Shown here piece after piece: positions 16,287 to 47,643 of a DNA stretch of 52,902 nt. The stretch lies in the IMG/VR virus record IMGVR_UViG_3300021335_000025, positions 1-52,902 of that record; one strand, written 5' to 3'. The notes below the pieces were generated by a model. It was not told the origin of the DNA. It saw nothing but the letters and a program-made list of their open reading frames with translations, and ran no database searches. A program made the translations under genes and the position numbers. Numbering within the stretch: the first letter of the stretch is position 1; the number at the start of each line of letters is the position of its first letter. The DNA comes from a virus (taxonomy: Duplodnaviria > Caudoviricetes).

Positions 16287-16360
16287 AGCCAAATAGCAGA
16301 CTCGAACTGCTGACCTTTGCTTTACAAAAGCATTGCTCTATCCAACTGAGCTAATTTGGC
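16287..16360 (-). tRNA. tRNA-Thr(UGU)
   Basis: GCCAAAT/ATTTGGC acceptor stem, anticodon loop TT-TGT-AA, T-loop TTCGAGT; A27.A43 mismatch; no encoded CCA. Confidence 0.93.
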
Positions 16361-16361
16361 A

Positions 16362-16631
16362 TTAATCAACAGGCAACATTTCTGGATTTTCCAGATCTAA
16401 TTCAAATAAGAGTGGATGACATTGCTCTTCAATCAAATATGAAGAACATTTATACATGTCATCAACTTCGTACCGTCTTTCTTTGTCTGCGATTTTGATT
16501 AACTCCTCATCGAATATAGATTCGTCTGGGAGTTCATCAAAAGTAAAGGGAACACCACTTATAAAGTACATAAGCACTATTTGTTTACCTTCATTGTACC
16601 ATACATATCTGGCATCAATTCGGTATTTCAT
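16362..16631 (-). CDS. Conserved hypothetical cyanophage protein (89 aa)
   Basis: Clean ORF between tRNAs; CTAAATA late-like motif upstream. Confidence 0.7.
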   Translation of the reverse strand: MKYRIDARYVWYNEGKQIVLMYFISGVPFTFDELPDESIFDEELIKIADKERRYEVDDMYKCSSYLIEEQCHPLLFELDLENPEMLPVD

Positions 16632-16675
16632 AAGTAGTTCTCTACTTTTGAATATTTAGGGTATTAAAACCCTAG

Positions 16676-16759
16676 TGCGAGTAGGGAGACTTGAACTCCC
16701 ACGGGATTGCTCCCAACAGATTTTAAGTCTGGTGCGTCTACCGATTCCGCCATACTCGC
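16676..16759 (-). tRNA. tRNA-Leu(UAA)
   Basis: GCGAGTA/TACTCGC acceptor, CT-TAA-AA loop, long variable arm GGGA-GCAA-TCCC; no intron, no CCA. Confidence 0.95.
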
Positions 16760-16766
16760 ATTTGTT

Positions 16767-16841
16767 TGGTAGGACTGGAGGGAATTGAACCCTCTTCACA
16801 CCGTTATAAGCAGTGGGCCTTAACCAATAGGCGACAGTCCC
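16767..16841 (-). tRNA. tRNA-Ile(UAU)
   Basis: GGGACTG/CAGTCCT acceptor, CACTG-CT-TAT-AA-CGGTG anticodon arm, T-loop TTCAATT, encoded CCA. Confidence 0.9.
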
Positions 16842-46691: not shown

Positions 46692-46863
46692 TTTCTTTTT
46701 TATAGTTTTTACGTTTCTTTTTGAGTTCTTTTAACTCTGCTTTGATAAGTTGATAGGCAGTCTCTCCATCAATCTTATTTCCCATTTCCATTGCAATAAT
46801 AACATCGGTGCGAGTTCCGAAGTGTTGCAAAGCCCTTTCGAAGGAATCTAAATCTTCATACAT
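46684..46863 (-). CDS. Hypothetical protein (59 aa, MYEDLDSFERALQHFGTR...)
   Basis: Not in track; TGATG-coupled to the upstream gene and fills the gap before thyX. Confidence 0.75.
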   Translation of the reverse strand: MYEDLDSFERALQHFGTRTDVIIAMEMGNKIDGETAYQLIKAELKELKKKRKNYKKENE

Positions 46864-47090
46864 CAGTCTGGGTATCCATCATCGTCATCACTATATAACC
46901 GATATTGATTCTTGGAAGTACTTTCTTCATGATAATCAGGTTCATATGAATCATCAATTTTTTGAATTAAATCCTCAAACTTGATAATGTTTTCTATATT
47001 ATCATCCTTAGAATCTTCCATTTCCAACTTAAGAGATTCAATCAGAAGTTCCATGTTTCGAATTATCAATGAAATTTTTTTCTTGTTCAT
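46863..47090 (-). CDS. Conserved acidic hypothetical protein (75 aa)
   Basis: LIIRNMELLIESLK...DDDDGYPD; own promoter upstream. Confidence 0.7.
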   Translation of the reverse strand: MNKKKISLIIRNMELLIESLKLEMEDSKDDNIENIIKFEDLIQKIDDSYEPDYHEESTSKNQYRLYSDDDDGYPD

Positions 47091-47110
47091 TTTATTCGCG
47101 CAGCAAAAAC

Positions 47111-47147
47111 ATTTTACATAAAAAAAGAGAGGGTGTCAACCCTCTCT
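47111..47147 (-). terminator. Terminator hairpin overlapping a sigma70 promoter
   Basis: AGAGAGGGT-TGAC-ACCCTCTCT plus T-run; the same bases give TTGACA-17 nt-TAAAAT. Confidence 0.85.
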
Positions 47148-47149
47148 AA

Positions 47150-47230
47150 TCACTTAAGTAAATGAACTTCAGCAACTATCAACAACATAAATGCCATTGA
47201 TGCCAAAGTTATTTCTGCTACTGTCAGCAT
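47150..47230 (-). CDS. Hydrophobic microprotein (26 aa)
   Basis: MLTVAEITLASMAFMLLIVAEVHLLK; overlaps the upstream stop and ends just before the terminator. Confidence 0.6.
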   Translation of the reverse strand: MLTVAEITLASMAFMLLIVAEVHLLK

Positions 47231-47325
47231 TTTTTTGCCCCAACAATATGTGCAATTTGTGCTTTATGTAGTCTATTCTGTTTTTGTTTTTGATCTTTAA
47301 TGATCTGCAGGACATTCAGTTTCAC
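47224..47325 (-). CDS. Basic microprotein (33 aa)
   Basis: GTG start in GTGA overlap with GAGG upstream; MKLNVLQIIKDQKQKQNRLHKAQIAHIVGAKKC. Confidence 0.6.
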   Translation of the reverse strand: MKLNVLQIIKDQKQKQNRLHKAQIAHIVGAKKC

Positions 47326-47456
47326 TTGCATACCTCTTTAGTTTCGGTATGCTTCACACCTCTGTAGGTTTCTACAAAGGTTTCTTTTGAACAAACCATC
47401 TTATTCAGACGGTCATTGGTGTCATAAGCGGCACCACGATATACGACTTTAGCCAT
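47322..47456 (-). CDS. DUF4278-like (IF17/GifB N-terminal-like) microprotein, 44 aa
   Basis: MAKVVYRGAAYDTNDRLNKMVCSKETFVETYRGVKHTETKEVCK has two YRG motifs; strong GGAGG RBS; downstream of the riboswitch. Confidence 0.8.
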   Translation of the reverse strand: MAKVVYRGAAYDTNDRLNKMVCSKETFVETYRGVKHTETKEVCK

Positions 47457-47489
47457 GAGATTGCCTCCAAAGAAATGAGTTAATTAAAA

Positions 47490-47542
47490 CCCGTTCCTTC
47501 GGGCGGTTTGCGTTCGCTATTTGCAAATAGCGAATGAACGAT
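47490..47542 (-). ncRNA. Glutamine-II (Downstream-peptide) riboswitch aptamer
   Basis: ATCGTTCA-TTCGCTATTT-GC-AAATAGCGAA-CGCAAACCGCCCGAAGGAACGGG: P1 CGTTC/GAACG, P2 hairpin and CGCAA junction. Confidence 0.8.
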
Positions 47543-47585
47543 CCGTTCCGCCGTCCTACTTGCGACCAGTTACCTGGTTGAACGT
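47543..47585 (-). ncRNA. Upstream glutamine-riboswitch-like aptamer (glnA/Downstream-peptide family)
   Basis: ACGTTCA-ACCAG-GTAA-CTGGT-CGCAAGTAGGACGGCGGAACG: same P1/P2/CGCAAG architecture. Confidence 0.7.
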
Positions 47586-47591
47586 AAGCAC

Positions 47592-47620
47592 ATTATAGTG
47601 CTATCAACTTATGTAGTCAA
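47592..47620 (-). promoter_or_regulatory. Sigma70 promoter of the riboswitch operon
   Basis: TTGACT-17 nt-TATAAT; predicted +1 at ~47585, the first base of aptamer 1. Confidence 0.85.
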
Positions 47621-47627
47621 GTGGTTT

Positions 47628-47643
47628 TGTATTTTATAATACA
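47628..47643. promoter_or_regulatory. Putative NtcA-binding site
   Basis: TGTA-TTTTATAA-TACA matches GTA-N8-TAC, 7 nt upstream of the -35. Confidence 0.55.

Follow-up and report, generated by a model that had tools for sequence, protein, structure and literature searches.

Two cyanobacterial systems come closest to the transcription unit described here, which occupies the minus strand (47643..47119) of a 52,902-nucleotide (nt) stretch of viral DNA (IMG/VR record IMGVR_UViG_3300021335_000025; the whole stretch is called the window). In Synechocystis, the gifB gene codes for IF17, a glutamine synthetase inactivating factor that contains DUF4278, and is under dual 2-oxoglutarate/glutamine input, the latter through a Glutamine-I aptamer acting as a translational ON switch (PMC6212724). 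Its promoter is repressed by NtcA from a site centred at −7.5, and the NtcA site of gifA is at −30.5 (PMC6316151). In Prochlorococcus MED4, a marine picocyanobacterium and as such a member of the phage's host group, PMM1846/Yfr6 combines a small DUF4278 protein, a glutamine ON switch acting on translation and an NtcA consensus in the promoter (PMC6316151, PMC6212724). On the phage side, NtcA sites were predicted across 16 cyanomyophages (PMC3037559), glnA RNAs are already in print for cyanophages (PMC9964418) and glutamine riboswitches were reported in other marine myophages (PMC9004378). For phage S-CREM1, the annotated glnA RNA has a length of 99 nt, like the composite match in the window, and is listed in the available part of that paper without architecture or target genes (PMC9964418). 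Tandem glutamine riboswitches, with two glnA-type units in a row, were described by Weinberg et al. 2010 (PMC2864571) and Sherlock et al. 2022 (PMC9481103).

We consider it probable that the window carries a stand-alone unit in which an NtcA-type box and a glutamine riboswitch control three micro-proteins of a T4-like Synechococcus phage, the switch being ON with glutamine. The box is followed by the promoter, the leader, open reading frames (ORFs) 1 to 3 and the terminator. An initial annotation of this DNA had proposed such a compact promoter-to-terminator unit, and every element that it listed was located on the minus strand, among them the TGTA-N8-TACA box, the TTGACT-17-TATAAT promoter, the two YRG motifs of ORF1 and the terminator. 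The parts have been described in hosts (gifB, PMM1846), and glnA RNAs have already been annotated in cyanophages. A literature search, with supplementary files outside its scope, did not find descriptions of the micro-protein operon, the interlocked leader, the fixed upstream register of the box, or the ORF2 and ORF3 families and their fusions.

The parallel with the host NtcA and glutamine-riboswitch logic, drawn in the initial annotation with gifB, is real, and PMM1846 is the closer precedent (PMC6316151). The host gene PMM1846 differs by its pseudoknotted Glutamine-II aptamer, whereas the window fails the Glutamine-II model (20.7 bits against 33), and neighbours of the ORF2 or ORF3 type are not described for it in the available sections of PMC6316151 and PMC6212724. 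The differences from gifB are larger: a single aptamer precedes a single gene, IF17 has 149 amino acids (aa) with a C-terminal glutamine synthetase-binding part against 44 aa for ORF1, and the NtcA-repressed promoter has its site at −7.5 against approximately −50.5 in the window (PMC6316151). The same cassette was found in the cultured phage S-PM2 (p192–p193), where the box, the promoter and the two RNA units precede a DUF4278-type ORF overlapped by an ORF2 homologue; a terminator follows, and thyX is close by. S-PM2 differs in having no ORF3, and its genes are annotated only as hypothetical.

The window record is a linear viral contig of 52.9 kb, estimated to be 25% complete. Because the phage records matching the neighbourhood were all from Synechococcus phages (146 of 146), the window is, on sequence grounds, a cyanomyophage fragment, from a T4-like Synechococcus phage. 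Relatives of the unit were gathered by a pattern for the junction of the two RNA units, which gave at least 120 viral contigs. Under a stricter pattern 17 of 120 contigs were left out (chance matches, truncated contigs and variants such as L014 and L117). The junction and a complete second unit were present in 105 loci, comprising the listed contigs, S-PM2 and the window, and all family counts given here are among the matches listed. L001 was excluded from the alignments used for folding. It is the conservation of each part across these relatives, and not the window alone, that makes the unit more than a chance assembly.

The leader matched the Glutamine-I model (glnA RNA, Rfam RF01739) with 41.2 bits, for a gathering score of 35, in one alignment running across both units (47586..47488). 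This match was composite, being made of the 5′ half of unit 1 and the 3′ half of unit 2 with a 52 nt insertion in P3. Unit 1 (47543..47586) is composed of the P1 5′ strand (47584..47580), a compact P2 hairpin with a 4 nt loop (47578..47565), the junction CGCAAGUA (47564..47557), the 5′ strand of an inter-unit helix (47556..47551) and a P1-type 3′ strand (47549..47544). Unit 2 (47488..47542) has a P1-type 5′ strand (47540..47536), a P2 hairpin (47534..47513), a junction (47512..47507), the 3′ strand of the inter-unit helix (47506..47501) and the GAAG sequence with the P1 3′ strand (47500..47492). The two units were separated by only 2–6 nt. Across 68 distinct sequences the P1 strands (CGUUC/GAACG) were invariant and both P2 stems covaried. 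RNAalifold paired the outermost P1 strands together and the two inner P1-type strands together. The loop-E junction was split, the GUA strand being present only in unit 1 and the GAAG strand only in unit 2, and the bases following GUA paired with those preceding GAAG to form the equivalent of P3. The partners in this inter-unit helix changed in compensation between sequence classes, one position being U:A, G:C or A:U, and the helix was kept in 28 loci with a very long unit 1 hairpin. All the structural hallmarks of Glutamine-I (P1, a covarying P2, P3 and a GUA/GAAG loop E) were present, P3 and loop E only across both units.

By its sequence and covariation, the leader is a single composite element of the Glutamine-I type, in which two units are interlocked by a covarying helix. 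The two back-to-back aptamers of the initial annotation stand as two aptamer-like units but not as independent ones; with the RNA architecture corrected in this way, most of its regulatory reading is upheld. The Rfam comparison that it had suggested returned glnA, in composite form only, and fell short for the Downstream-peptide family. In the doublets described in the available parts of PMC9481103 and PMC2864571 the units are treated as separate and pseudo-cooperative, whereas those of the window abut, share a split P3 and E-loop and are joined by a covarying helix. In the Glutamine-II structure the ligand site is built by P1 and a CGCA linker (PMC6698751); both were present in each unit, and the element may bind one or two glutamines. 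An intrinsic terminator within the leader (hairpin 47504..47489 followed by UUUU) was considered and rejected, as it was not conserved in S-PM2.

A long form of unit 1 was found in 28 loci. A reading of 30 loci as "half" riboswitches, with the start of unit 1 missing, was rejected after inspection of sequence further upstream. In 23 of the 28 long-form loci the CGTTCA sequence lay 196–255 nt upstream and was followed by a strand pairing, over 5–6 consecutive pairs, with the bases before CGCAAGUA; the other five showed only three consecutive pairs by a crude count. The P2 stem of the long form enclosed a complete ORF of 61–69 aa with a hydrophobic N-terminus and conserved cysteines (23 of the 28 loci; L002, L004, L008, L010, L021, L023, L025, L030 and others). 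The bases of this stem covaried, for example UCUUAU/AUAAGA, UCCAAU/AUUGGA and UCCUAU/AUAGGA. In L014 and L117, the hairpin of the second unit opened into an apparent coding sequence, and a gene may sit in the unit 2 loop.

Downstream of the aptamer, the expression platform (47464..47475) ends with the Shine-Dalgarno sequence GGAGG (47468..47464), 7 nt before the ORF1 ATG. The segment UUUCUUUGG (47475..47467), which overlaps the first two G of GGAGG, is complementary to the aptamer 3′ strand 47502..47494, a strand made up of the last bases of the inter-unit helix, the GAAG sequence and some of P1. These two segments were paired in the minimum-free-energy fold of the leader. A duplex of at least 5 bp ending 6–11 nt before the start codon was predicted in 63 of 86 distinct leader combinations, as compared to 12 of 86 after shuffling. 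In this duplex, a C of the aptamer strand faced G in 10 of 10 cases and a U faced A in 27 and G in 12, and S-PM2 showed a compensatory U-A where the window has C-G. The complementarity fits a glutamine-ON translational switch, the mechanism reported for gifB and for a Prochlorococcus DUF4278 gene (PMC6212724).

The NtcA-type palindrome TGTA-N8-TACA is located at 47628..47643 (core GTA-N8-TAC at 47642..47629). Downstream of it is a promoter of the sigma-70 type, TTGACT-17-TATAAT (47592..47620, 11 of 12 consensus matches), whose −35 and −10 elements are separated from the box by 8 and 31 nt, respectively. The last base of the −10 element is 47592, and pairing in the aptamer starts at 47584; the start at approximately 47586/47585 is a prediction only. 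The same promoter layout was seen in S-PM2 and in many loci, and the spacing of 8 nt between the box and the −35 was also found in S-PM2, where the intervening sequence differs. Boxes were counted where unit 1 was short and no fewer than 80 nt of upstream sequence were available, which gave 69 distinct upstream sequences. GTA-N8-TAC was present in 61 of these 69 regions, as compared to 1.6 on average and never more than 7 over 500 shuffles. In 55 of the 69 it lay 57–62 nt before unit 1, these 55 boxes having 34 different N8 sequences. The exact 31 nt gap of the window between TAC and the −10 was found in 42 relatives. Approximately six relatives (L012, L041, L058, L080, L085, L087) had the box closer to the −10, with gaps of 8–21 nt.

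ORF1 (47322..47456), which constitutes module A, is a basic 44 aa peptide (net charge +3) of the DUF4278 type, as had been proposed, with YRG motifs at residues 6–8 and 31–33. The window copy matched DUF4278 (PF14105) over residues 3–35 with 21.9 bits (E 2.2e-4), which is short of the curated cut-off of 25.3, and 73 of 74 aligned module A members matched it at E ≤ 0.01, the best at 1.8e-13. Residues Y6, R7, G8, Y11, Y31, R32 and G33 were invariant in the module A family. ORF1 was also a full-length match to phrog_5049 (E 2.9e-11), a family without assigned function. ORF1 has no further domain, since the DUF4278 match occupies residues 3–35 of 44. Judged by this length and match, and without direct alignment to IF17 or IF7, ORF1 lacks their C-terminal part.

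The second gene, ORF2 or module B (47224..47331), has 35 aa from the ATG at 47331 or 33 aa from the GTG at 47325. With the GTG start, ORF2 overlaps the ORF1 stop by the classical 4 nt (GTGA) and is better spaced from its Shine-Dalgarno sequence than with the ATG. The peptide is strongly basic (net charge +7) with a conserved L-Q-(I/L)-I-K motif, and it matched the N-terminal half of phrog_545 (E 6.1e-06, profile positions 1–24 of 55). This family, without assigned function, is that of a fusion between an ORF2-type segment and a YRG peptide. In eight loci the ORF2-type segment was fused to a two-YRG peptide at the N-terminus of the latter, in one locus it was fused C-terminally to a YRG motif, and in three loci it stood alone directly behind the riboswitch. 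These natural fusions are the reason to propose that ORF1 and ORF2 act together. A complex prediction for the two (score 0.00, mark 0.32) gave no verdict and was not used as evidence either way. Searches by sequence among solved structures returned nothing meaningful for the ORF1 and ORF2 families, and the ESM Atlas gave no usable match for ORF2, for which a record of the GTG-start form exists. A divergent basic peptide of 33–41 aa occupied the ORF2 position in seven loci (L007, L025, L051, L082, L092, L107, L118), which were not captured by the ORF2 hidden Markov model (HMM).

ORF3 (module C, 47150..47230) is a hydrophobic peptide of 26 aa whose start overlaps the end of ORF2. Its best 19 aa Kyte-Doolittle window scored 2.15, for a family mean of 2.11, and on this hydropathy the peptide is probably inserted in a membrane. 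Conservation of the second and third peptides was a point on which the initial annotation had made its proposal depend. By HMM search, 42 of the 105 loci had a member of the ORF2 family and 24 had one of the ORF3 family, the HMMs having been built from the very loci that were searched, a point against the model. The ratio of non-synonymous to synonymous polymorphism (pN/pS) was 0.39 in frame for ORF2, as compared to 1.24 and 1.50 in the other frames, and 0.51 for ORF3, as compared to 0.85 and 1.08. Third codon positions were the most variable in both, and the start/stop overlaps of the ORFs were kept in relatives. From these substitution patterns, ORF2 and ORF3 are conserved coding families under purifying selection. 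ORF3 had no match in PHROG or Pfam. The tblastn check gave a mixed result, with no match for ORF2 among phage isolates and, for ORF3, matches only at E = 3 (P-HM1, P-HM2 and MED4-213). The latter are credible only because they lie directly after a module A gene; the ORF3-homologous frame in P-HM2 is unannotated. In many relatives a fourth small gene of 51–57 aa, with a Y-R-G-C motif and several cysteines, followed the ORF3 homologue (L016, L031, L037, L039, L067, L071, L084, L089, L093, L100, L110, L112 and others). The window is without it, and the terminator comes directly after ORF3.

This intrinsic terminator (47119..47147) has a 9 bp stem (47147..47126) with a 4 nt loop followed by a T run. 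In S-PM2 a terminator was found at the equivalent place, after the ORF2 homologue. Contigs from four marine RNA libraries (four studies) covered 47154..47589, the uppermost reaching 47589, and one contig spanned 47154..47566 with all three ORFs. The uncovered stretches (47590 upward and most of 46900..47150) are not informative. The coverage lends weak support to transcription of the unit in the sea. Contigs from three of the libraries carried adapter letters at ends 47566, 47566 and 47569, inside the 3′ strand of unit 1 P2, and lower adapter-bearing ends were at 47201, 47226 and 47258. These may reflect processing or just short inserts and are not read as RNA ends.

We propose the following model. 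Host RNA polymerase would read the unit from the near-consensus sigma-70 promoter, which would suggest early expression, and the box upstream of the −35 would give the 2-oxoglutarate-dependent regulator of the host access to this promoter. By analogy with the host gif genes, we lean towards modulation or repression as the form of the putative NtcA control. In the leader, two P1/P2 cores would share one P3-like helix and one GUA/GAAG loop, where glutamine is presumed to bind. Without glutamine, the aptamer 3′ strand would pair with the sequence overlapping the Shine-Dalgarno; with glutamine this strand would be kept in the aptamer and ORF1 would be translated. ORF2 and ORF3, which overlap the preceding stops, would follow by probably coupled translation, and the three micro-proteins would be made together at high host glutamine. 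The DUF4278/YRG peptide and the basic helix of ORF2 would then act as partners, with ORF3 as a membrane peptide. The phage appears, in this way, to read the nitrogen state of its host.

Several observations weigh against this model. Taken alone, neither unit reached the RF01739 gathering score (26.1 bits for unit 1 and 32.4 for unit 2, against 35), and both missed the Glutamine-II (Downstream-peptide, RF01704) threshold of 33 (21.4 and 20.7 bits, respectively). The paired fraction of the inter-unit helix over 22 classes (0.674) exceeded that of permuted partners (0.615 ± 0.018, a value reached in 1 of 2000 permutations) by a margin that is modest because many classes share the same bases. The Shine-Dalgarno-proximal duplex was absent by the criterion used in 23 of the 86 leaders, and one large leader class showed a different candidate anti-Shine-Dalgarno directly after P1. 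When the window is taken alone the box is at chance level, with one TGTA-N8-TACA (the sole such site) for 1.14 expected, and 11 core motifs for 7.6 expected. Its predicted centre, around −50.5, fits neither a class II activator nor the repressor positions of gifA and gifB. A class II site would take the place of the −35, with its centre near −41.5 and the −10 about 22 nt downstream, while the window has a good −35 and a 31 nt gap, which places the box approximately 10 bp upstream of the classical activator position. Nor does it overlap the core promoter, unlike the sites of gifA (−30.5) and gifB (−7.5). The structure model of ORF1 was of low confidence (predicted local distance difference test 67, predicted template modelling score 0.24). 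Finally, neither the strand nor the ends nor the level of a transcript can be read from the RNA-library contigs, which may include DNA.

The position of the box also leaves room for an activating role of NtcA, which we regard as possible though less likely than modulation or repression. Transcription would then need high 2-oxoglutarate and translation high glutamine, a combination that would point to a block at GOGAT or to infection itself. Such a role would agree with a box that stands clear of the core promoter, upstream of the −35, with the proposal of Sullivan et al. that NtcA sites promote cyanophage gene expression (PMC3037559) and with the mention of NtcA-activated promoters having sites upstream of −41.5 (PMC6316151). 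Against this, an activator seems unnecessary because the promoter already matches 11 of 12 consensus positions, and in the hosts the expression of DUF4278 and gif genes accompanies nitrogen excess (PMC6212724, PMC6316151). Moreover, among the relatives with short gaps, four (gaps of 8–15 nt) have the box centred near −31 by our count, which is the gifA repressor geometry. For the leader, an ordinary doublet of two independent, pseudo-cooperative glutamine riboswitches is improbable. Sherlock et al. listed 157 glutamine riboswitch doublets as pseudo-cooperative (PMC9481103), and each unit here has its own P1, P2 and CGCA linker, parts that build the Glutamine-II ligand site (PMC6698751). Yet there is no room for a separate expression platform, because only 2–6 nt lie between the units. 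Unit 1 is devoid of the GAAG strand and unit 2 of the GUA strand, the P3-like helix between them covaries, and neither alone attains the Rfam threshold.

The role of the peptides can be read in other ways. ORF1 could be an IF17-like phage factor that inactivates host glutamine synthetase at high glutamine, assisted by ORF2 and ORF3, which we find unlikely. Its DUF4278 type, a control logic mirroring gifB and PMM1846 (PMC6212724, PMC6316151) and the basic character of ORF1 and ORF2 (+3 and +7), a property noted for inactivating factors (PMC6316151), would suit this role. However, DUF4278 is only the N-terminal moiety of IF17 and is disposable for its function (PMC6316151), and short picocyanobacterial DUF4278 proteins are described as being without the C-terminal residues for glutamine synthetase binding (PMC6316151, PMC6212724). 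The 44 aa of ORF1 leave no room for an IF17-type C-terminal part, and no solved relative of ORF1 was found by sequence. Since the DUF4278 part of IF17 is disposable for inactivation, action on glutamine synthetase is unsupported, and the initial claim of a module acting on host nitrogen assimilation is left as conjecture. There is a slim chance that the shared-P3 double aptamer and the NtcA site form a two-input sensor of phage making that releases a three-part effector. Its target would not be glutamine synthetase but another host component of nitrogen signalling or uptake, such as PII/PipX or a transporter for ammonium or urea, intercepted when the infected cell is in a particular metabolic state. 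In line with their natural fusions, the YRG peptide and the basic ORF2 helix would in this case be one functional protein, and the hydrophobic peptide would tether or complement it at the membrane. It is very improbable that ORF2 and ORF3 are untranslated and that their conservation reflects an RNA or DNA constraint on the 3′ part of the transcript. Their very short length (33–35 and 26 aa), the lack of a PHROG or Pfam match for ORF3 and the tblastn results (E = 3 for ORF3, none for ORF2) would speak for such a constraint. The third-position variation and the pN/pS values (0.39 and 0.51 in frame, 0.85 to 1.50 in the other frames) argue for translation, as do the conserved start/stop overlaps and the occurrence of the ORF2-type segment within longer ORFs, fused to YRG peptides in either order.

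Upstream of the cassette lies a glutaredoxin/thioredoxin-like gene, and ThyX is encoded downstream of it. A second promoter-like site, TTGACA-17-TAAAAT (47111–47139, minus strand, 11 of 12 matches), starts in the terminator loop and is directed at the next gene, a 75 aa ORF (47090..46863). In most relatives the cassette is likewise followed by a homologue of this ORF, ending in an acidic D-D-G-Y-P-D-like tail. Three clustered tRNA genes are present elsewhere in the window (16287–16841, minus strand). A pattern scan for the ORF2 family in 185,579 species genomes, of limited sensitivity, returned a single locus, L123, on a 3.8 kb phage-like contig binned into an Acetobacteraceae metagenome-assembled genome. 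The gene order of L123 (module A, ORF2 homologue, ORF3 homologue, acidic-tail gene, ThyX) was the same as in the window, and its comparison with Rfam gave no match at gathering level. This locus is most likely a cyanophage fragment placed in the wrong bin.

Cyanophages depend on host nitrogen, and exploitation of NtcA was proposed earlier (PMC3037559). Glutamine riboswitches have been annotated in phages, with targets not named in the available parts of PMC9964418 and PMC9004378. The unit in the window provides a concrete, widespread and testable case, in which an interlocked RNA sensor and a conserved regulator site precede three tiny proteins, and annotation often overlooks two of these. Its interest is moderate, because it is widespread, can be tested in S-PM2, a cultured phage with a tractable host and the same cassette, and bears on the function of DUF4278. 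The phage version of this domain, with its natural fusion partners, offers a handle on DUF4278 function, including in the hosts.

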